A DNA stretch of 64,000 bases from an uncultured Alteromonadaceae bacterium (GCA_938085045.1 CALKGI010000018.1:1-64000), one strand, 5' to 3'. Shown: positions 15,359 through 38,960, counted from the stretch's first letter. The notes: generated from the letters alone by a model not told the origin. Numbers and translations: made by a program.

Positions 15359-15433
15359 TTTGCTAGTAGCTCAACGGTAGAGCAGTGGACGAATAATCCA
15401 TTTGTTGTGGGTTCGATTCCCACCAGCAAACCA
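15359..15433 (+). tRNA. tRNA-like sequence, probably a degenerate or pseudo tRNA (Lys/Ile-like scaffold)
   Basis: Canonical D-arm (TAGCTCAACGGTAGAGC) and T-arm (GTGGGTTCGATTCCCAC), but the acceptor stem has a mismatch or register problem and the anticodon loop CGAATAA has G33 and A34. Confidence 0.45.
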
Positions 15434-29348: not shown

Positions 29349-30785
29349 ATGCAGGCCATATCTAAACAATCCAGCGAATTTTTGTACCAGCAGGTCATAG
29401 AGCTTATCCAGCAAATGCAACGCTCGGGCACTTTAAGGGCTGGCGATAAATTACCGTCATTACGTAAACTCAGCAGCCGACTCGAAGTGAGTGTGCCCAC
29501 AGTAAAGCAGGCATATTTAGAATTAGAGCGTCAAGGGGCAATCGCCGCAAGGCCGCAATCGGGCTATTACCTTAAGGCTGAGCACGCTAAGCCATTGCAA
29601 TCAACAAGAGCCCAGTGGCGTAAAACCGAGCCTACGCCGGTAAAATGCCGCAGCTTAATTGAACGCGTTTACGAAGAAGTGCACAAACCCAACGTAGTGC
29701 CATTAGGGATAGCGAATCCAGTTATGGCCTGCTCTCCAGACAAAACGCTGGCAAGAACCATGCGTAGGGTGTTATCAAAAGTTGCAGCAAAGGCGGTCAG
29801 TTATGGGCCAATTCATGGCGACCCAGACTTGCGCAGACAAATCGCCTACCGTTATCAAGATCACGGCATAAACGCCGAACCAGAACAGCTAGTGATCACC
29901 AACGGCGCACAAGAAGCCATGTCGATAGCGTTGCAATGCGTTGCCGATGCTGGCGATGTTATCGCGGTAGAATCACCAACCTTTTTTGGTTTGCTTGAAT
30001 TGATTGAAGCGTTAAACATGAAAGCAATGGAGATAAGAACTTGCTCCGACAGCGGCTTATGTTTAGAAGACTTGAGTCAGGCAATAGAACAGCACCCCAT
30101 AAAAGCCTGCATTTTTGCCTCATCAATTAACAACCCTATGGGTTCGTTGATGAGTGAGGGCAAGCGCGAAAAAATGGTTAGACTACTCGAAGAAAAAGAC
30201 ATCCCTTTGATAGAAGACGACGTATACGGCGAACTGTATTTTGGCGAGAAACAACCCCGCCCAGCGGCGTTTTACTCCCGTAAAAACCAAGTTATGACCT
30301 GCTCGTCGTTCTCAAAAACCGCCGCCCCCGGTTATCGATTGGGTTGGTTAATGCCAGGCAAATGGGAAGAACAAGCCAAGCGTCTAAAGCGCTCACACTC
30401 GTGCTCAACTGGCATGTTACAACAATGGACCATGAGCGAATTCATCAAAAGCGGTGACTACGACAGACACTTGAAAGTATTAAGAAAAACCCTAGCCTTC
30501 AACAGCGAAAGAATGCGCTGCCATGTGGCTAAACACTTCCCCGAAGACACCTGCATTTGCACCCCACAAGGCGGCAGCGTGCTATGGATAAAGTGCCCAA
30601 ACAACATCAACACTGCAACGTTGTTTGAAACCGCAATAGAGCAGGGGATTAGCTATACGCCGGGGAGTATTTTCTCACCTTCGGGTAAGTATCATAACTA
30701 TATGCGAATTAGCTTTGGGGTTGTTTGGGATGATGAAATTGAGGCGGCTGTTGTTAAGTTGGGAGGGCTGGTTAGTAAGGCATGA
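29349..30785 (+). CDS. MocR/GabR-type regulator (N-terminal GntR HTH fused to PLP-dependent aminotransferase fold)
   Basis: N-terminal GntR HTH (…PSLRKLSSRLEVSVPTVKQAYLELE…); C-terminal fold-type-I aminotransferase domain with SFSKT PLP-Lys motif. Confidence 0.8.
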   Translation: MQAISKQSSEFLYQQVIELIQQMQRSGTLRAGDKLPSLRKLSSRLEVSVPTVKQAYLELERQGAIAARPQSGYYLKAEHAKPLQSTRAQWRKTEPTPVKCRSLIERVYEEVHKPNVVPLGIANPVMACSPDKTLARTMRRVLSKVAAKAVSYGPIHGDPDLRRQIAYRYQDHGINAEPEQLVITNGAQEAMSIALQCVADAGDVIAVESPTFFGLLELIEALNMKAMEIRTCSDSGLCLEDLSQAIEQHPIKACIFASSINNPMGSLMSEGKREKMVRLLEEKDIPLIEDDVYGELYFGEKQPRPAAFYSRKNQVMTCSSFSKTAAPGYRLGWLMPGKWEEQAKRLKRSHSCSTGMLQQWTMSEFIKSGDYDRHLKVLRKTLAFNSERMRCHVAKHFPEDTCICTPQGGSVLWIKCPNNINTATLFETAIEQGISYTPGSIFSPSGKYHNYMRISFGVVWDDEIEAAVVKLGGLVSKA

Positions 30786-31249
30786 ACATTTATTAAAACA
30801 TCACTTCGCTATGATGAATTTGGTATCTACGAGCACCTTTTTTTGCAATGACAATCACCGATTTTTAATTGCGAAATTATTCGAACTACTCTTCAAAACA
30901 TTCAATAGACCATTGCATGTAAGGCACAGTTTATTTTCAAAAAATGAGATGTGGACTTGGCTTTCATGTACCTGTGAGTAATTATCTCACGAATTATTGA
31001 CAAATCGAAACATCGGCATTACTTTTAGATGACGGTCCGTCAATCGGATCTTATGGGTCTGATATTCCTACTAAAACGTTGTTGTAGCGTGTGTTTTCTA
31101 GAGTTTATATTGCGAGCGAGGTCAACTACTCTGGCTTGGTTTTCGTTACGTATAAACATACCAAATGTCTATGGCATTTGGTATATCGAGCGAGTTTTGG
31201 TCGGATTTTTTGCAATTTATGTGGTTATTTACTTATTCGTGGAGAAAAG

Positions 31250-32755
31250 ATGACAAATCTAAATGAAGGATATGGAGTACTAGTAATTTATACAGGTGGC
31301 ACGTTGGGGAGTGCGCCAAAAGATAAGAAAGATCCAATGAGTCCACTTGTTTCAAGGCCTCTGGAGGATGTGATGGAGTATCTTCCTCATTATGATGAAC
31401 GTGACAAGAAAATACAGATAAATGGGAAGTGGGTTCGAGTTGGAACTCACTCGTGGGATGTCCCTATTGATTCGTCTGATGTTACTTCAAAGGATTGGAT
31501 AGAGATGGCAAAAGTAATTAAGGAAAATTACCAAGAATACGAAGGCTTCGTCATATTGCATGGTACTGATACTTTGTCTTATACCGCTTCTGCATTAGCA
31601 TTTCTATTGGATAACTTGGATAAACCTGTGATAGTTACAGGTTCTCAGCGACCAATAGGACAGACAAGATCGGATGCAGTTCAAAATTTTATCACTGCAA
31701 TTGAAATCGCTGGGGCACAATCTCTTGGTGGAGATATTGTTAGGGAAGTGTGTGTATTTTTTGCCAAACAATTGTTAAGAGGTTGCCGTTCGATTAAAAA
31801 GAGTGCTAGTGATTTTGAAGCTTTTGATTCACCTAATTTATTGCCTTTGGGCAATGCTAATGAACATATCGTCATAAATAACGATATAACCAGAAAAGGG
31901 TCAAATCATAATTTGACTATTTCGACGGAGTTAGCTGGCGAAATAGCTTCACTAGATATTTTTCCAGGAATGAGCGTTGAGTTGCTGAATAGCATTTTAC
32001 TCAATGAAAACTTAAAAGGTGTTGTATTAAAAACGTTTGGGACCGGTAATGCACCAACCAGTCCGGAGTTTTTAGATGTCATTGAAAAAGCGAGTAAAAC
32101 TAAACTTATAGTTGACGTTACGCAGTGTCGCTCAGGCGAGGTAGAGCTTGGGTTGTATGATGTAAGTGCAGGGCTTTTGTCTAGAGGTGTCATAAGCGGA
32201 ATGGATATGACGCCAGAAGCTGCTTTAACAAAAATGGCGGTGGTTTTGAAAAACACAAAAGATAAGGAAGGAAATATCGATTTACGGGTTGCAGCAGATA
32301 CAATGCAGCTCGACTTAAGAGGTGAACAGCGTCAAAGTATATTTAATTTGCATTTTGAGGCGGGCGAGATTGAGACTCAAAAATCCATCAATCAAATGTC
32401 ACCTATGGTTGAAGGTTTAGATAGATATAAAGTAGAAATGCTGGACAAAGCAATTCTGAGGATAATGGGAATCCATATACCTGAAACAAAAAGGGGGACG
32501 ATTGAGTTTAAAGTGTATATAGACCTGCCTGACGCTGATGAAGATACAAAAGAAGAAGGTAACCCTCATTATCTAGGTACTGCGACAAAAAGGTGGGATG
32601 AAAAAGCAGGCAAGGAAAATATTTTTATTCCTGTCACTAAACAGGCAAGAGAGTTTGTAGATAATCGTCATGATAATTCTTTGACACTTGTAAATTTGGG
32701 TGGTAACGATTTCTCTTGGGCTAGATTAGAAATTGCTTTTTTTGCCGATTGTTAA
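31250..32755 (+). CDS. Type-I-asparaginase/glutaminase-domain protein with about 160-aa uncharacterised C-terminal extension (paralog A, catalytic residues intact)
   Basis: TGGT nucleophile motif, HGTDT, and RGCRSIKKSASDFEAF (Lys retained). Start at the ATG with the GGAGAAAAG SD; AT-rich with AGA/AGG Arg codons. Confidence 0.75.
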   Translation: MTNLNEGYGVLVIYTGGTLGSAPKDKKDPMSPLVSRPLEDVMEYLPHYDERDKKIQINGKWVRVGTHSWDVPIDSSDVTSKDWIEMAKVIKENYQEYEGFVILHGTDTLSYTASALAFLLDNLDKPVIVTGSQRPIGQTRSDAVQNFITAIEIAGAQSLGGDIVREVCVFFAKQLLRGCRSIKKSASDFEAFDSPNLLPLGNANEHIVINNDITRKGSNHNLTISTELAGEIASLDIFPGMSVELLNSILLNENLKGVVLKTFGTGNAPTSPEFLDVIEKASKTKLIVDVTQCRSGEVELGLYDVSAGLLSRGVISGMDMTPEAALTKMAVVLKNTKDKEGNIDLRVAADTMQLDLRGEQRQSIFNLHFEAGEIETQKSINQMSPMVEGLDRYKVEMLDKAILRIMGIHIPETKRGTIEFKVYIDLPDADEDTKEEGNPHYLGTATKRWDEKAGKENIFIPVTKQAREFVDNRHDNSLTLVNLGGNDFSWARLEIAFFADC

Positions 32756-32764
32756 GGAATTAAT

Positions 32765-34549
32765 ATGTCAGATGAAAATCACGGTGGTGGTGTCCTCGTT
32801 ATTGTTACTGGTGGAACTGTTTGCCTATTGGTAAAACATGTGAAGAATGCAGGAGATAAATTGGAGCCTGCATCATTAGATGAGCTTAGACAAATAATCT
32901 TGGACGATCACAATCATATTGTTGTTCGTGAAGGGCGAGTTGAAAGTAAGGCAATGCGAGTTGATTTTGAAGACTTAAGGAATATACATCTGCCACCGGA
33001 AAAGCTGGATTCTGCACAAGTAAACCCAAAAGTTTGGTCAGAAATCGCGGATATGATACGCGATAAGTATTATAAGTATGAAGGGTTTGTCGTTTTGCAC
33101 GGTTTGGATACTATGGCATATTCTGCGTCAGCATTATCTTTTATACTAGGGAATCTTCATGTTCCCGTTATACTCACGGGTTCGCAAAGACCTCTAAATT
33201 ATGGTCGAACAGATGCAGTGCAAAACATTAGGACGTCTATTACCTTTGCGGGTACTGCTACTGTTGGAATAGGACGAGCGATACCAGAGGTTGTAGTTTA
33301 TTCACATGACACCTTATTTCGCGGCAATCGTGTCACAATGCAACATGCTTCTTCTTATCGATGTTTCGACACCCCGAATTTTCCAGAGCTTTCGACTGCG
33401 GGGGAATTTTTAGACATTAAAACACATTTAATTGTAACTCCAAAAAATCAAACTCGACTGCTTTACATGGGGAAAATAGATGCAAAAGTTGAAATTATTG
33501 ATGTTTATCCGGGTATGCATGCGAGTGTAATAGAAAGTTTATGTCATATGGATGCCGATTCGATTTTTCTTGAGGAAATTGAAAGTTTTGTCAAATCAAC
33601 AATACTATTAGGGGAAAAAGCAGAGGAAGAAAAAGAGCTAGCGACTGAGTTTTTAAAAGAAATTAAACATTTGTTTAAAAAGGATCAGTTAGACAGAGTC
33701 ACAAATGTGCTTAATAAAACTCAGATTAGAAAATACCAACCGATATTAGAGCTTGTAAAGATGTCAGTGGCTAAAAAGAAGAAAGTTAAGGGGGTTGTAT
33801 TACGTACATATGGTATGGGGACTGCACCTACATCACCAGATGTATTGAAAGCATTGAATAGACTAGTGGAATCTGGAATTATCGTGTTGAATGTAACGCA
33901 GGCGCAATGTGGCAGAATTTCTCATGGCTCAGATCCCGTAAGCTTAAGACTGTTCGAACATGGGGTTGTTTCTGGTGGTGATATGACTTCGGAAGCAGCT
34001 CTCGCTAAGTTAGTAATTGTCCTTTCAAATGCAAATATTAAAGATTCCAATCCCAAAAAGGTTAATCGAATATTAGCTGATATGCTACAAATTGAAAGCT
34101 GTGGTGAGCAGTCTCAAAGTATCTTTAATCTTCACTTTGGTGCGGCTGAAACTAGTCTAAAAGGCAATGGAAACGATTGTACGGTTGATTTGTATCCCAA
34201 TCGGATGACAGAAAGTCATCGGTTGGATGAGCAAAGCATTAAATATATTCAATTCAGGATACTGGGGCTTAAATCGGTACCCTCGTCAGGTTCTTCAAAT
34301 AAGATCTCGATATTTTCAGCTGATTTGATCGATAAAACGGAGCATGAAGAAAACATAATTAAGCCGCTTGTTGAAAATTTAACACTGAAATGGTCAATGC
34401 CAGGAGATACATTAAATTTTGCTTTTGACATTACGAATGTAAGTCAACATATATTAAGTCCTGACATAATGATTCGAATTAAGACAAATGATGCTGTTCA
34501 ATTTGCAAGTGTTTCTTGTGTACTTTTTGCTAAAACAAATGATTTATAG
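32765..34549 (+). CDS. Asparaginase-domain paralog B, predicted catalytically inactive, with shared C-terminal extension plus a further about 90-aa tail
   Basis: TGGT present, but HGTDT is HGLDT (Thr to Leu) and the catalytic Lys is replaced (RGNRVTMQHASS). It shares …SQSIFNLHFGAAE… with paralog A (…RQSIFNLHFEAGE…). Confidence 0.7.
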   Translation: MSDENHGGGVLVIVTGGTVCLLVKHVKNAGDKLEPASLDELRQIILDDHNHIVVREGRVESKAMRVDFEDLRNIHLPPEKLDSAQVNPKVWSEIADMIRDKYYKYEGFVVLHGLDTMAYSASALSFILGNLHVPVILTGSQRPLNYGRTDAVQNIRTSITFAGTATVGIGRAIPEVVVYSHDTLFRGNRVTMQHASSYRCFDTPNFPELSTAGEFLDIKTHLIVTPKNQTRLLYMGKIDAKVEIIDVYPGMHASVIESLCHMDADSIFLEEIESFVKSTILLGEKAEEEKELATEFLKEIKHLFKKDQLDRVTNVLNKTQIRKYQPILELVKMSVAKKKKVKGVVLRTYGMGTAPTSPDVLKALNRLVESGIIVLNVTQAQCGRISHGSDPVSLRLFEHGVVSGGDMTSEAALAKLVIVLSNANIKDSNPKKVNRILADMLQIESCGEQSQSIFNLHFGAAETSLKGNGNDCTVDLYPNRMTESHRLDEQSIKYIQFRILGLKSVPSSGSSNKISIFSADLIDKTEHEENIIKPLVENLTLKWSMPGDTLNFAFDITNVSQHILSPDIMIRIKTNDAVQFASVSCVLFAKTNDL

Positions 34550-35727
34550 TGAGGCATGATGTGATAGTTAAAATTGAAAGCGTTATGAAAGAAATCGTCA
34601 ATATAGTGAAACTTGATGCCGGTGAGTTGAAAACAAATGATATTCGAGGCAAAAACAACCTACTTTTAAGGGGACAGTCTTGTCTGCGTAATTTTCTGAC
34701 TAGCCATGATAAGAATTCTAAATTGGATATGTTTGAATCTTTTGAGTTACTATCAGATCACTTAGCTATTGAACATGTTGAGTCGTTTGAGTATCAATTA
34801 GTGGCATTGCGTAAGCTAATTGAAGACGTAAAGAATAATGAAAACGAAGTAGATTCGAAATCGAAAGATGTAGCAACGAAGGAAAGTTTGGTTCGCCATT
34901 GCGAACGAAAAGAAAAGCAATTGGAAAATATTGATGTACTAATTGTCTGTGCGCTATCATCGCCTGAATTGGAAATGGTACTTCGACAGTTTCTGGCGGG
35001 TACGTGTGTTAACCATAATTCTTATATCGGTAGCTCCCGGGAAAAACGAACTTATTACTCTGGTGACTTATTATCTAAAAAAGGGGCGGTAATTAAAGCT
35101 GTAGCTCTTTCTCAAAGTCGAATGGGAATGGTCGATACGGCTGCGTTGGTCACCGGCAGTATTATTACTTTCAACCCCAAAATTATTGCCATGACTGGGG
35201 TGTGCGCTGGTCGACTTGATGCAAACGTTGAAAAATTGGATTTAATAGCAGCAAGTAGTGTATTAACGCACGATACAGGTAAGTACACAGAAAATGGTTT
35301 TGAACCTGAGCCGTATGTATCCAAAGCGAGTGAGCTGGCGATACAAAGAATTGAAGCCGTAGGTGCTACATTAATAAAATCTATAATTACTGAAATGGAT
35401 AAGACCCCTTGCCCTATCAAGATTGTAACCCCTAAAATACATACGGGTATAATGGCTTGTGGCTCATCAGTTATAAACCGAGGTGGGATGTTAAATGATA
35501 TTGCTAAGACAAATCGTAAAGTAGTTGGTCTTGATATGGAAAGTTACGCAATGTTACGAGCAGCGGAACTGATCGATAACGATATTATTAGAATCGTAGT
35601 AAAAGGAGTTATGGATCATTCACAAGGTAAGGCTGATGATGTAAAGGAGTCGGCGGCCTCTTGGTCAGCTAGCTTTCTTACTCGATTTCTTGAATCAGAG
35701 ATTGAGGCCTTAATAGGTCATGAATAA
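34549..35727 (+). CDS. Protein with C-terminal PNP/UDP-phosphorylase-family (MTA/SAH-nucleosidase-like) domain and a novel about 120-aa N-terminal region
   Basis: …IIAMTGVCAG… and …VVGLDMESYAML… match phosphorylase-family-1 motifs. The start is ambiguous: in-frame GTG at 34549 and 34561 (SD tGAGG 6 nt upstream) and ATG at 34585. Confidence 0.65.
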   Translation: MRHDVIVKIESVMKEIVNIVKLDAGELKTNDIRGKNNLLLRGQSCLRNFLTSHDKNSKLDMFESFELLSDHLAIEHVESFEYQLVALRKLIEDVKNNENEVDSKSKDVATKESLVRHCERKEKQLENIDVLIVCALSSPELEMVLRQFLAGTCVNHNSYIGSSREKRTYYSGDLLSKKGAVIKAVALSQSRMGMVDTAALVTGSIITFNPKIIAMTGVCAGRLDANVEKLDLIAASSVLTHDTGKYTENGFEPEPYVSKASELAIQRIEAVGATLIKSIITEMDKTPCPIKIVTPKIHTGIMACGSSVINRGGMLNDIAKTNRKVVGLDMESYAMLRAAELIDNDIIRIVVKGVMDHSQGKADDVKESAASWSASFLTRFLESEIEALIGHE

Positions 35728-35765
35728 ATACATTCATGACCTATTTGATTCAAATTTGAAAAGTT

Positions 35766-36938
35766 CTACTGAAGATTCTCAACCCCACCATCCCCATCAA
35801 CAACAAAAATCCCATCAGCATTAAACAATACCCCATAAGAAGTTCGTGCTGGAATGGTGATCAAATGATCAGCTGGATGCTTAACATCAACAGCAATCAC
35901 TTGCCCGTCAAATCTCAACTCCGGCTTGTCGACAATGGTATGACCGACCGCAATAGACTTGGCTCCGTAGTAATCAAGCACTTCAGTTAACTTGGGCTTG
36001 TCGATTTTTGGCGAGTTCTTTTGCGACATAAAATAACCTCGATACCACATTGGGCCATTGCGACCAAACAGTAGTTTTTCTAGTGGCGGACGTTCTTTCT
36101 TGGGGATGTCTATTGCTGCTCGCATGGTTTGGTTAATGGCTTCTAACGACAGTTTACCTTCGCTCATTTTTGGTGATATACCGCCGTGGGTGAATAGGGT
36201 GTCGCCGATTTTTTCTATGATGTTTTTCGAGCGTAACCATTTGCCCAGTTCGGTGTTTGCTTGGAACATGTCGGCGTAAATCATATTGTTTTTCTCTTGC
36301 AATAATTCACCAAACTTGTAGTACTTAGATTCGGCATAACGTAAGTCGTTTTGCAGTACCAGCATTTCGTGGTTGCCAATGAGCATATGCACATCGCCGC
36401 CACTGCTTTGGGCCTCGCCTTCTAATCGGTAAATTAGCCACAATAATTCGGTTACGTGGTTACCACGGTCGAACACATCGCCAATTATCACTAAATGACC
36501 TTTGCCGAACGACCAGTTAAGTTGGTCGTCTATTACTTTGTGCAATTTCAACATGTTAGTGACTGTGTTGAAGTTGCCTTCTACGTCAGATATTGCAAAG
36601 AGCTTTTCTGGCTTGGGGTGGGTAACGGGTGGGGTGACAATGTTTTGTCTAATTGGCACGGTAAAGCGCACTTCGGGTTTGCCGGGTTTGAACACTTCAA
36701 CTTTGGTCGGACGTTCTATGTTTTCAATTTTCAATGCCATTTTATCATCAGCAGGCACGCCAGTGATTAAGTGTGTTTGCTCTTTGCCGTAGACTATGTG
36801 CGGGCCTTCATGCAGCTCTATTTGGGGAAGGGTATCGCGGATAATGACCAGCCTGTCTTCACTGACAAATAAATAGATGAAGTAAATGGCGATGGCTAGA
36901 ACGATTAAACCGGCAAGTTTTTTGATGATTGAATTCAT
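35766..36938 (-). CDS. Membrane-anchored PPP-family metallophosphoesterase (calcineurin-like, ApaH/PrpA-like)
   Basis: GDxxDRG and GNHE signatures (GDVFDRGNH…LIGNHEM); start taken at the Met preceding the TM helix. Confidence 0.65.
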   Translation of the reverse strand: MNSIIKKLAGLIVLAIAIYFIYLFVSEDRLVIIRDTLPQIELHEGPHIVYGKEQTHLITGVPADDKMALKIENIERPTKVEVFKPGKPEVRFTVPIRQNIVTPPVTHPKPEKLFAISDVEGNFNTVTNMLKLHKVIDDQLNWSFGKGHLVIIGDVFDRGNHVTELLWLIYRLEGEAQSSGGDVHMLIGNHEMLVLQNDLRYAESKYYKFGELLQEKNNMIYADMFQANTELGKWLRSKNIIEKIGDTLFTHGGISPKMSEGKLSLEAINQTMRAAIDIPKKERPPLEKLLFGRNGPMWYRGYFMSQKNSPKIDKPKLTEVLDYYGAKSIAVGHTIVDKPELRFDGQVIAVDVKHPADHLITIPARTSYGVLFNADGIFVVDGDGGVENLQ

Positions 36939-37085
36939 GGCTGTTTTAGATTGTGAGTTGAGCGGGATGGCATCATAACATAGGTGATAGCAGATTCGCA
37001 GTGATGCCCTTTCGACGCAGGCCCTTCTATTGCGCACAATGATTGGTTATCATGACAGTCTACCCACCTATTACGTAGGATCAAC

Positions 37086-38960
37086 ATGTTTCAAAAAACC
37101 TTAATTGCCGCACTTGTTTGTTCAGTGCTGGCAGGCTGTGGCACCAGTGCCAATAAAAATACTTCACCTGACGCGCAAATGAGCCCCAAGCAGGCGATGA
37201 CAACGGTTTCTCGCGCCGACATCGACCAACTTGTTGACCGTCACACCCGAGAGTTTTTGACCTTACAACCCGCATTGGCCACCGCTTTGAATGTTGATGC
37301 ATCGGTGGCGGGCAATTTCTCTGTCAAATTGCCAGACTATTCAGCCGCAGGCATGAAAAATGTGCAACAAACTATGGCTAAAGCCGCAGCTGATTTAGGC
37401 AAGATTAATTTAGATAGTCTAAGCGAGCAAGACCGATTACATGTTTCGGTTAATAAGGTGATTGACCAGTACTACGCTGGTGATTTAGATTTTCCGGGCG
37501 GTTATATAGACACGTGGGGTGGTCATTTACCTTATGTTGTTAGCCAAATTGCAGGCCCGCTGATTGACATTCCTACGGTATTTCAAGATCAACACGTGGT
37601 AAGTAATAGGCAGCAGGCCGACGATTATTTGGTACGTCTCAAAGCCTTTGGCGTGTTGATTGAGCAGGTGCTAAGCAAAGTTAAGTCAGACGAAAAAGCC
37701 GGCATTATTCTGCCTAAAAAGCTGTTTGCCGATACGCTGGGTTATTTAAAAGGTTTCAGTGATGTGCCAGCCAGCAAGCATTCGTTAGTCGCAACGTTTG
37801 AAGCCAAATTAGACAAAGTGAATTCGATGGATGGCAAAATGCGTGAGCAATATAGCCAAAAAGCGATTGCCATTGTTTATGGTCAAATCTTGCCGGGTTA
37901 TCGCAAAGTTCATGCGTTTATGAGTGAGCAGCAACACCGGGCACCCAATGACGATGGCATTTGGGCACAACCGGGCGGCGAGTCATTCTATGTGCACGAG
38001 ATTTTGAATTTGGGTGATTCTGTTTTGTCACCTGACGAAATTCATCAAATTGGTTTAGATGAAGTCGCGCGTATCACCATCGAAATGGACGGTATTTTAA
38101 AAGCCAACGGTAAAACCAAAGGCAGTGTTGGCGAGCGCATGATGGCGCTAAACGACGACCCACAATTTATCTATGAAGATTCTGACGAGGGCCGCGAGAA
38201 GTTGCTGGCTGACTTACGAAAAGAAGTCGACATCATCATGGAAAAAGCACCAATGCTGTTTGCTACTTTGCCTAAACAAGAAGTTGTTGTTAAGCGTGTG
38301 CCAATAGTGCGAGAAAAAAGTGCCCCGGGCGGCTCTTATGTTCCACCTGCGCTCGACGGTTCAAGGGCAGGGGAGTACTTCATTAATTTGTACGACATAA
38401 AATCTAACCCCAGCTTTGGTTTGAAAACCCTGACTTATCACGAAGCGGTGCCGGGTCATCACTTTCAAATTGCATTGAACATGGAACAACAAGGGCTGGG
38501 CATTATGCGTCAAAACGGCCAGTTTAATGCTTATGTCGAAGGTTGGGCTTTGTATTCTGAATTGCTAGCCAAAGAAATGAACATGTACGAAGGCGATCCG
38601 TGGGGCGATTTAGGCCGTTTGCAAGGTGAGTTGTACCGCGCAGCCCGATTGGTTGTTGATACGGGGATACATCACAAAAGATGGTCACGTGCTAAAACTG
38701 TAGACTACTTTTACCAGGCTACAGGCACTTCGCGCAACGATGCTGAAAATGCAATTAATCGTTACATGGCGTGGCCGGGCCAAGCGCTGGGTTACAAAAT
38801 GGGCATGATTAAGATTGTTGAATTGCGTGAGTGGGCTAAAACGCAATTGGGTAGCAAGTTTGATATCAAAGCGTTCCACGACTTGGTGTTGTTACCGGGC
38901 TCACGGCCTTTGCCTATCTTGGAAGAAGATGTGAAGCGTTGGGTTGCTAAGCAGTTATAA
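37086..38960 (+). CDS. DUF885-family lipoprotein (metallopeptidase-like HEAVPGHHFQ motif)
   Basis: Lipobox LAGCG; HExxxGHH motif characteristic of DUF885. Confidence 0.7.
   Translation: MFQKTLIAALVCSVLAGCGTSANKNTSPDAQMSPKQAMTTVSRADIDQLVDRHTREFLTLQPALATALNVDASVAGNFSVKLPDYSAAGMKNVQQTMAKAAADLGKINLDSLSEQDRLHVSVNKVIDQYYAGDLDFPGGYIDTWGGHLPYVVSQIAGPLIDIPTVFQDQHVVSNRQQADDYLVRLKAFGVLIEQVLSKVKSDEKAGIILPKKLFADTLGYLKGFSDVPASKHSLVATFEAKLDKVNSMDGKMREQYSQKAIAIVYGQILPGYRKVHAFMSEQQHRAPNDDGIWAQPGGESFYVHEILNLGDSVLSPDEIHQIGLDEVARITIEMDGILKANGKTKGSVGERMMALNDDPQFIYEDSDEGREKLLADLRKEVDIIMEKAPMLFATLPKQEVVVKRVPIVREKSAPGGSYVPPALDGSRAGEYFINLYDIKSNPSFGLKTLTYHEAVPGHHFQIALNMEQQGLGIMRQNGQFNAYVEGWALYSELLAKEMNMYEGDPWGDLGRLQGELYRAARLVVDTGIHHKRWSRAKTVDYFYQATGTSRNDAENAINRYMAWPGQALGYKMGMIKIVELREWAKTQLGSKFDIKAFHDLVLLPGSRPLPILEEDVKRWVAKQL

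Follow-up and report, generated by a model that had tools for sequence, protein, structure and literature searches.

An asparaginase/pseudo-asparaginase cassette with exchangeable effectors, a candidate modular conflict system, in an Alteromonadaceae genome

In the genome of an uncultured Alteromonadaceae bacterium, an asparaginase gene is followed directly by a second, degenerate copy and by a gene for a protein of the phosphorylase family 1 (PNP), which raises the question of what function such a trio serves. The stretch of DNA that was analysed, referred to below as the window, comprises 64,000 nucleotides (GCA_938085045.1 CALKGI010000018.1:1-64000), and a map of its open reading frames (ORFs) places the three co-directional genes on the plus strand, at 31250-35727. 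Here, they are called AsnA (31250-32755; 501 aa, a catalytically intact type-I asparaginase fold with a C-terminal jelly-roll), AsnB (32765-34549; 594 aa, a predicted pseudo-asparaginase paralogue of AsnA, also with a C-terminal jelly-roll) and the effector (34561-35727; 388 aa, PNP/MTAN fold). A first-pass annotation had put the block forward as a candidate undescribed, defence-like system. As far as sequence can tell, that proposal is supported by the insertion of the cassette, its recurrence in unrelated lineages, the exchange of its effector, and matches to defence models and defence-type neighbours. We consider it likely that the cassette represents a modular conflict system not described before, of the abortive-infection (anti-phage) type, in which a complex of AsnA and AsnB controls a docked effector.

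The PNP-family protein is rare, with 17 close clusters among 5.8 billion proteins. The gene order AsnA-AsnB-effector, with short gaps, was found in at least 13 distinct loci, including unrelated lineages and differing genomic contexts. Among the hosts are an Aminicenantes metagenome-assembled genome (MAG; L023/24) and a Pyrinomonadaceae MAG (L005), which we take, from the family name, to belong to the Acidobacteriota. The PNP gene is found 3' of AsnA-AsnB wherever the contig sufficed (L002, L003, L005, L017-19, L020, L030, L032 and L039/L060), and a PNP effector is present in 8-9 loci. When the search is started from AsnA, the gene located 3' of AsnB varies. It encodes a nuclease with a DpnII/MboI-type restriction fold in L021 and L059 (E = 3e-52 against the Aga_Helical-REase model, associated with prokaryotic Argonautes, pAgo; P0158 is of the same nuclease class), a TIR protein in L028 that matches SpbK (6e-17) and ThsB, a RelA/SpoT-domain protein that matches PDC-S33 in L040 and L045, and an unannotated 462-aa protein in the Aminicenantes locus L023/24. 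Five classes of third gene thus follow AsnA-AsnB, i.e., a conserved core is combined with exchangeable toxic effectors. In an unbiased metagenome sample AsnB was present in 11 loci and absent in ~9, the remainder being interrupted by contig ends.

The exchanged effectors have a common N-terminal region. A hidden Markov model (HMM) built from the N-termini of the PNP proteins only also matches the N-termini of the nuclease (6e-7 and 5e-4) and TIR (1.5e-3) effectors, and it recognised nothing else among the ~2900 ORFs of all fetched loci. Only 19 matches to this adaptor profile were found among 1.84 billion representative proteins, of which 14 are PNP-family proteins or N-terminal fragments and one (P0158) is an adaptor-nuclease fusion; the remaining four are weak and involve unrelated long or coiled-coil proteins. 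Judged from these profile matches, the PNP, nuclease and TIR effectors, whose toxic domains are unrelated, appear to share a rare, system-specific docking module of ~95 aa, and this shared adaptor argues against the nuclease, TIR and RelA/SpoT genes being chance neighbours of AsnA-AsnB. Conservation within the adaptor is low, with no invariant residue besides Met1, which is more in keeping with a protein-protein interface than with a small-molecule sensor. The earlier suggestion of an amidohydrolase that acts on a signal or on a modified nucleotide found no support; the poorly conserved, helical adaptor points to protein docking instead. A role of AsnA as a deamidase of the adaptor, acting on a conserved Asn or Gln, was also considered and set aside, as no adaptor residue after Met1 is invariant.

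Several variants of the arrangement were seen. At L021:9992-16592 and L059:7992-14701 the nuclease cassette is part of a five-gene block, completed by convergent genes for a TIR_2 protein (322-324 aa) and an amidase-signature enzyme (PF01425, 498 aa). This block shows ~50-84% aa identity between the two loci, the flanks of which are unrelated, and neither its TIR_2 protein nor its amidase has a PADLOC match; together, the two may represent a second effector system linked to an amidohydrolase. A related arrangement is found at L058:5289-9615 (an IMG/VR contig), at L050:4323-9612 and, on the minus strand, at L023:16452-19167. Here, the first gene encodes a ParA/CbiA-like ATPase (L058, L023) or a NACHT and pentapeptide protein (L050) and is followed by a ~355-aa asparaginase without the jelly-roll, which in L050 carries HGVDT. 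In L050 and L058 the next gene is that of a ~500-aa AsnA-like protein that has the jelly-roll; in L023 it encodes a pyridoxal phosphate-dependent decarboxylase instead. L025 looks like a degenerating copy: AsnA is intact, but all that is left of AsnB downstream of it (L025:11572-12199) are two short ORFs with the N-terminal 'VVGGN' and the C-terminal 'CGEQS'.

Both paralogues contain the N and C domains of asparaginases (PF00710, PF17763), with Pfam E values of 6e-53 and 1.5e-25 for AsnA and 4e-44 and 2.8e-21 for AsnB, and both are closest to cytoplasmic type-I asparaginases. In AsnA the N domain is encoded by nt 31277-31885, the C domain by nt 31943-32269 and the jelly-roll by nt 32294-32752, all on the plus strand, as delimited with Pfam, NCBIfam and AlphaFold2 (AF2). 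The best match of AsnA in the PDB is AnsA (E = 1e-62), which aligns with aa 10-340 only. Four residues, T15, T106, D107 and K183 (the Thr of TGGT, the Thr-Asp of HGTDT, and Lys), which correspond to the catalytic positions of asparaginases, are kept in 117-120 of the 120 family clusters listed. C293, in a TQC motif conserved with AnsA-type enzymes, is invariant across the clusters listed and is presumably the allosteric-site Cys of AnsA. AsnA nevertheless misses both NCBIfam cut-offs (PRK09461 / TIGR00519; 274.1 vs 376 for the equivalog and 260.3 vs 260.5 for the subfamily), and the scores of AsnB on the asparaginase models, 214.9 and 212.3, are also below the cut-offs. The AsnA family is far larger than that of the PNP protein (120 matches listed, all with E ≤ 1e-147 and all but two 475-547 aa long), and AsnA is better conserved than the other two proteins, with 56-64% identity across loci of unrelated lineages. 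A GEQ motif after the asparaginase C domain looked specific to the family at first; it is not regarded as a new catalytic motif, its Gly-Glu corresponding to the normal C-terminal end of type-I asparaginases.

The AsnA architecture also occurs outside the cassette. A solitary AsnA-like gene with the jelly-roll adjoins a nitrilase (CN_hydrolase) gene at L042:2767-5290 and in L043, an alpha/beta hydrolase gene in L046, and an ornithine cyclodeaminase gene in L062-64 (L062:6518-9497). These solitary enzymes are probably metabolic ancestors of the cassette asparaginase.

The degenerate nature of the second copy, already remarked upon in the first-pass annotation, is borne out and extends over the family. 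Among 18 distinct AsnB orthologues, the motif reads HGLDT (Thr replaced by Leu), the catalytic Lys is replaced by Met and the Cys of TQC by Ala in 18/18 sequences, while the first Thr is variable (T, A, I or M). Because the catalytic residues are lost in all 18 orthologues, AsnB is, as far as can be predicted from these residues, a conserved pseudoenzyme. It keeps TGSQ and the Asp of HGxDT, which in asparaginases contact the amino-acid backbone of the substrate, and AsnB may still be able to bind a ligand. A Lys/Glu-rich, apparently helical insert of ~81 residues (aa 260-340, nt 33542-33784, plus strand) lies between the N and C domains of the window copy only; it is absent from six other aligned orthologues.

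Beyond the asparaginase domains, AsnA and AsnB each carry ~150 extra C-terminal residues for which Pfam gives no match. An AF2 model of aa 349-501 of AsnA, based on 29 aligned sequences, shows a jelly-roll beta-sandwich (pLDDT 91.9), and the same domain is found at the C-terminus of AsnB (nt 34082-34546, plus strand). When the C-terminal domain of AsnA was used alone in a word-indexed, insensitive protein search, a single fragment, from Candidatus Magnetomorum, was returned. The best Foldseek matches in the PDB are 7xio, 4z13 and 6elt (E = 7e-6 to 1e-4, query TM-score 0.5-0.6), i.e., C-terminal domains of latent tyrosinases and polyphenol oxidases (PPOs), followed by viral capsid jelly-rolls and TGF-beta prodomains. 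As in the PPO/tyrosinase shielding domain (PPO1_KFDV-like), the jelly-roll is fused C-terminally to an enzyme. The C-terminal domain of PPOs keeps the enzyme latent by covering the active site, and this analogy suggests an auto-inhibitory or gating role for the jelly-rolls of AsnA and AsnB. Unlike a true family relationship, however, the resemblance comes with an identity of 11-18% and no Pfam match, and jelly-rolls are generic, the capsid and TGF-beta prodomain folds scoring nearly as well.

The third protein was correctly assigned to phosphorylase family 1 in the first-pass annotation. Although the effector is not matched in our own Pfam scan, it carries a precomputed PF01048 assignment, matches the NCBIfam MTAN model (E = 1.9e-12) and aligns by Foldseek with MTA/SAH nucleosidase (MTAN) structures (E = 2e-15, target TM-score 0.75-0.8, identity 17-19%). 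With residues numbered according to the 392-aa form, the AF2 model (pLDDT 80) shows an N-terminal four-helix bundle at aa 2-96, a linker and an MTAN-like domain. The adaptor is thus delimited as aa 1-96 (nt 34549-34836), the disordered linker as aa 98-123 and the alpha/beta nucleosidase domain, an MTAN-like PNP, as aa 130-389 (nt 34936-35715), all on the plus strand. In the HMM alignment to MTAN, the invariant residues E140 (in PEL-E), E331 (DMES) and D356 (VMD) fall on the motifs AME(E), (E/D)ME and ISD, the catalytic motifs (Glu, Glu, Asp) of MTANs.

That the protein might be a housekeeping MtnN, a single-domain enzyme of ~230 aa, was rejected: the score against the MTAN equivalog PRK05584 is 47.2 bits, with a cut-off of 169, the protein is 388-392 aa long, and it carries an extra four-helix domain. 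In PADLOC it matches PDC-M60C (E = 1.8e-42, PNP domain only) and the PN-superfamily effector of CBASS (E = 2e-7), and its homologues include a receiver-PNP (DtcC-like) protein, P0019. By these model scores, the effector appears closer to defence effectors of the Cap17/DtcC kind than to the housekeeping enzyme MtnN. The PNP domains of Cap17 and DtcC cleave adenine from ATP and dATP, and a PNP domain, when found in an uncharacterised bacterial protein, is a reported predictor of immune activity (bioRxiv 10.1101/2023.01.24.525353). The window effector is probably an adenine-nucleotide nucleosidase.

How did the cassette come to be in this chromosome? The housekeeping proteins of the window cluster at ≥90% identity with MAGs labelled Algicola or Psychrosphaera sp. 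In one of these, an Algicola sp. MAG (GCA_013216025.1), the contig L061 follows the window in the same order as far as position 30763, with 85% nt identity, over genes for DUF2797, a PAS kinase, CheX, a response regulator, Exo_endo_phos, EamA and MocR, and the alignment restarts at position 35780, within the phosphoesterase gene. Between these points L061 holds 98 bp and the window 5016 bp, i.e., the site is empty in the relative. The inserted segment (30764-35779, ~5.0 kb) comprises an upstream non-coding region, the three genes and a terminator hairpin. Its composition is foreign: the three genes have a GC content of 0.378-0.389 and a GC content at third codon positions (GC3) of 0.29-0.32, compared with 0.449±0.023 and 0.465±0.032, respectively, for the 37 other ORFs of the window, so that the GC3 is ~5 standard deviations lower. 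AGA and AGG make up 27/64 Arg codons in the cassette and 101/575 elsewhere in the window (Fisher p = 2e-5). Both the AT-richness of the block and its enrichment in these codons had been remarked upon at first reading, and these measurements agree. Because the site in L061 is empty and the composition foreign, the data point to an insertion in the lineage of the window. The boundaries show neither a target-site duplication nor an att-like repeat, only an 8-mer inverted match; there is no tRNA in the vicinity of the insertion and no recombinase gene within or adjoining it. The absence from the syntenic relative, together with the unrelated contexts of the other loci, speaks against the trio being a vertically inherited feature beside asparagine or purine genes.

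In light of these properties it is relevant to ask whether the cassette belongs to a known system. Membership tests set it apart from Detocs, CBASS and PDC-M60, and its proteins are equivalogs of neither AnsA nor MtnN. With Detocs and the CBASS effector Cap17 it has in common an MTAN-fold PNP output domain with conserved catalytic Glu/Glu/Asp; a DtcC-like receiver-PNP protein is among the effector homologues, as noted above, and the CBASS PN-effector model matches the effector. Effector replacement is also shared with Detocs, where a minority of operons carry other effectors instead of the PNP (bioRxiv 10.1101/2023.01.24.525353), and the outcome expected from these systems, predicted also here, would be destruction of ATP/dATP and growth arrest. 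In contrast to Detocs, Pfam and NCBIfam reveal neither a histidine kinase (DtcA) in the cassette nor a Response_reg domain on the effector, the N-terminus of which is the four-helix bundle. Unlike CBASS, neither the cassette nor the ~5 kb on either side contains a CD-NTase or a cyclic-nucleotide sensor domain, and there is no TPALS or SAVED domain; the match of a ThiF-type gene, located elsewhere in the window, to CBASS E1-E2 models reflects generic ThiF homology, and this gene is not a CD-NTase. The upstream module, i.e., an asparaginase paired with a pseudo-asparaginase, also differs from those of Detocs and CBASS.

Of PDC-M60, only the C component is recognised, with aa 119-388 of the effector aligned to positions 139-405 of the 407-position PDC-M60C profile. 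Identity with this system was rejected as the match is confined to the PNP domain and AsnA and AsnB have no PADLOC match, and the A and B partners of PDC-M60 are therefore different proteins. Short pAgo systems (SPARTA, SPARSA, SPARDA) resemble the cassette in that a conserved sensor module is combined with an exchangeable effector, of TIR, REase or PNP type, through a dedicated adaptor domain, and the nuclease variant found here matches the pAgo-associated model cited above. In contrast to these systems, the cassette contains neither an Argonaute nor an APAZ domain and shows no sign of guidance by nucleic acids, and its adaptor is an unrelated four-helix bundle. The likeness to the short-pAgo/Detocs class is only one of logic, i.e., a conserved core with exchangeable effectors. 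With AnsA and GatD, finally, the two-domain asparaginase fold is shared, and AsnA has the catalytic Thr/Thr-Asp-Lys set and the TQC Cys; it differs in falling below the NCBIfam cut-offs, in the added jelly-roll, in an obligatory dead paralogue as partner, and in being mobile and linked to a toxic effector.

Some of the loci lie among defence genes. L059 adjoins SIR2 and HerA, a QatA-like KAP NTPase, a transposase and a patatin; in L005 a TmtA homologue (1e-131) is found 3 kb away; L021 is near PIN, HEPN/MNT and NucS genes; and L025 adjoins genes for a 508-aa TIR_2 protein and a JetC-like protein, putatively Wadjet JetC from its AAA_29/SbcC_Walker_B architecture. L002 adjoins two transposases, and ~2.9 kb upstream of the cassette in L003 there are two tandem DUF4160/DUF2442 pairs (634-1932) that resemble toxin-antitoxin (TA) genes. 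Among 88 neighbours from 13 loci, strong PADLOC matches were to JetC, HerA, SIR2, TmtA, PDC-S08, a CARF-AAA-HTH regulator, QatA, mad3 and mad8; the control, 37 ordinary genes of the window, gave a single, generic match of ThiF to E1-E2. No conserved metabolic neighbours were seen across the loci examined. At E ≤ 0.01 neither AsnA nor AsnB is recognised by a PADLOC model, none of the three proteins matches PHROGs, and no paper linking an asparaginase to phage defence was found in the searchable literature. As a separate observation, an asparaginase gene of ordinary length (342-364 aa, catalytic residues intact) is located within 2-3 kb of the trio at two loci that are not related, L017:7552-8580 and L023:16452-17546, which could be a coincidence or a functional companion.

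From these elements the following mechanism can be proposed. The active sites of asparaginases form across an intimate dimer, and if AsnA and AsnB form a hetero-oligomer, one of the composite sites in every A:B dimer would be live and the other dead. The effector would dock on AsnA/AsnB through its four-helix adaptor and be kept inactive until an infection cue, sensed by the jelly-roll domains or by the live and dead amino-acid-binding sites, releases or activates it. The predicted reaction of the window effector is then the release of adenine from ATP/dATP or from a similar adenine nucleotide, which would arrest growth of the infected cell. A further, more tentative proposal is that AsnA/AsnB constitute a new immune sensor built on amidohydrolase chemistry, where the sites or the jelly-rolls read an infection-specific change and license the docked effector. 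Such a sensor might respond to altered pools of Asn, Gln or Asp, to a protein of the phage, or to an amide compound that the phage makes and AsnA hydrolyses, and catalysis by AsnA would be part of signal perception or reset.

Several observations weigh against an effector-controlling defence cassette and have to be set beside the evidence above. The first six trio loci were found via the PNP protein, and the share of PNP among the effectors is inflated accordingly. The adaptor HMM detected no adaptor on the RelA/SpoT (L040/L045) or L023 effectors. Solitary AsnA-like enzymes with the jelly-roll, which lack AsnB and are divergent (≤ ~50% identity), are found in metabolic contexts; the asparaginase architecture alone is therefore no mark of defence, and as asparaginase plus jelly-roll is not exclusive to the system, its markers are AsnB and the adaptor-bearing effector. 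The excess of defence genes among the neighbours, ~9-11/88 vs 0-1/37 for the window controls, is statistically weak (one-sided Fisher p ~0.04-0.08), and the window locus itself, like L039/L060, lies outside any defence island, among ordinary chromosomal neighbours. In addition, the strict conservation of the AsnA catalytic residues has no explained role in the model; catalysis could be part of sensing or reset, serve to deplete Asn as an output, or mark AsnA as a 'guarded' enzyme.

Of the other explanations, the one that survives best, albeit as an unlikely one, is that the cassette is a selfish or addiction module, or serves in conflict between elements, such that the effector is a toxin neutralised by AsnA/AsnB and loss of the cassette kills the cell, or plasmids and competing elements are targeted. 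The toxic types of effector domain, the mobility and patchy distribution of the cassette, the TA-like pairs and transposases near some loci and the decayed copy in L025 are all compatible with this explanation. Yet three large genes with a strictly conserved enzyme/pseudoenzyme pair are atypical of TA modules, and PNP, TIR and pAgo-type nuclease domains make up a known set of defence effectors. Nor was the cassette found on mobile elements: a tblastn search with AsnB against annotated plasmids and phages returned only ordinary, partial ansA-type matches (coverage ≤53%), and a scan of IMG/VR gave only one distant variant pair, L058.

It is somewhat harder still to maintain that the system defends by starvation for Asn (or Gln), with AsnA as the main effector, AsnB as a regulatory subunit and the third gene as an auxiliary effector. 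This explanation would account for the invariant catalytic residues and TQC Cys of AsnA and fits with AsnA being the best conserved of the three proteins across unrelated lineages. Depletion of NAD+ and of dNTPs is an established defence logic. The same holds for depletion of ATP (bioRxiv 10.1101/2023.01.24.525353). Starvation for Asn leaves unexplained, however, why a toxic, adaptor-bearing domain follows AsnB and is freely exchanged; bacteria can resynthesise Asn, and there is no precedent. That the trio is an ordinary metabolic operon, in which two asparaginases catabolise Asn/Gln next to an MTAN- or AMP-nucleosidase-like salvage enzyme, is very improbable: AsnA is a close structural relative of AnsA, solitary AsnA-like genes adjoin nitrilase or ornithine cyclodeaminase genes and in L017-19 and L023 the trio has ordinary asparaginase genes close by, but AsnB has lost its catalytic residues in every orthologue, the PNP protein misses the MTAN equivalog cut-off, the cassette is foreign in composition, absent in a close relative and without conserved metabolic neighbours, and the exchange of the third gene for a nuclease, TIR or RelA/SpoT domain largely refutes this reading.

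In the window, MocR is found upstream of the cassette and a convergent PPP-phosphoesterase gene immediately downstream, both as initially described, and the statement that no amino-acid catabolism genes are close by also holds, with no Asn or purine genes near the cassette in the window. AsnA starts at ATG 31250, which is preceded by a GGAG Shine-Dalgarno sequence and corresponds to the start position in homologues; because of these two features a longer ORF from GTG 31091 was rejected as the AsnA gene. The tight spacing reported for the genes stands in part: the 9-nt gap between AsnA and AsnB, which includes AGGA, is as given, while the 0-nt gap between AsnB and the effector becomes 11 nt with a start at GTG 34561. 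The longest effector ORF begins at GTG 34549 (392 aa) and overlaps the AsnB stop by 1 nt; GTG 34561 (388 aa), which the public gene call uses as the start, is preceded at a distance of 7 nt by a GAGG Shine-Dalgarno sequence.

Upstream of AsnA, a 464-bp AT-rich non-coding region (30786-31249, plus strand, GC 0.37-0.40) is presumably the promoter and leader of the operon. Downstream, a perfect 10-bp inverted repeat read from the sequence (35716-35741, plus strand; GGTCATGAAT-AAATAC-ATTCATGACC) spans the stop codon of the effector, 25 nt away from the stop of the convergent phosphoesterase gene, and is probably a terminator common to both genes; a scan for consensus terminators did not call it. 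Promoter and terminator scans of the locus performed no better than on shuffled sequence and gave no convincing promoter, and no Rfam family was found within 30000-37500, the leader included. An 88-aa ORF with a TTG start (30715-30981), which overlaps the 3' end of MocR and enters the AT-rich region, is probably spurious. The sole tRNA of the window, found with ARAGORN at 15359-15432, is a tRNA-Ile with anticodon AAT, a type that is rare among bacteria.

If the cassette is a defence system, its sensing and regulatory module, i.e., a pair of an asparaginase-fold enzyme and pseudoenzyme with jelly-rolls, would be without precedent in immunity, and a new adaptor domain would couple PNP, nuclease and TIR effectors to this asparaginase module. 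Such a system would provide a context for the unexplained class of ~500-aa asparaginases with a C-terminal extension and a possible link between amino-acid metabolism and abortive infection, in a compact, three-gene form for which catalytic and dead-site mutants are clearly defined. The AsnB signature (HGLDT, Lys-to-Met, TQA) and the adaptor HMM are family markers ready for use in defence-annotation tools. Should the tentative proposal of a sensor based on amidohydrolase chemistry also be correct, the cassette would represent the first asparaginase-gated immune pathway of any organism.

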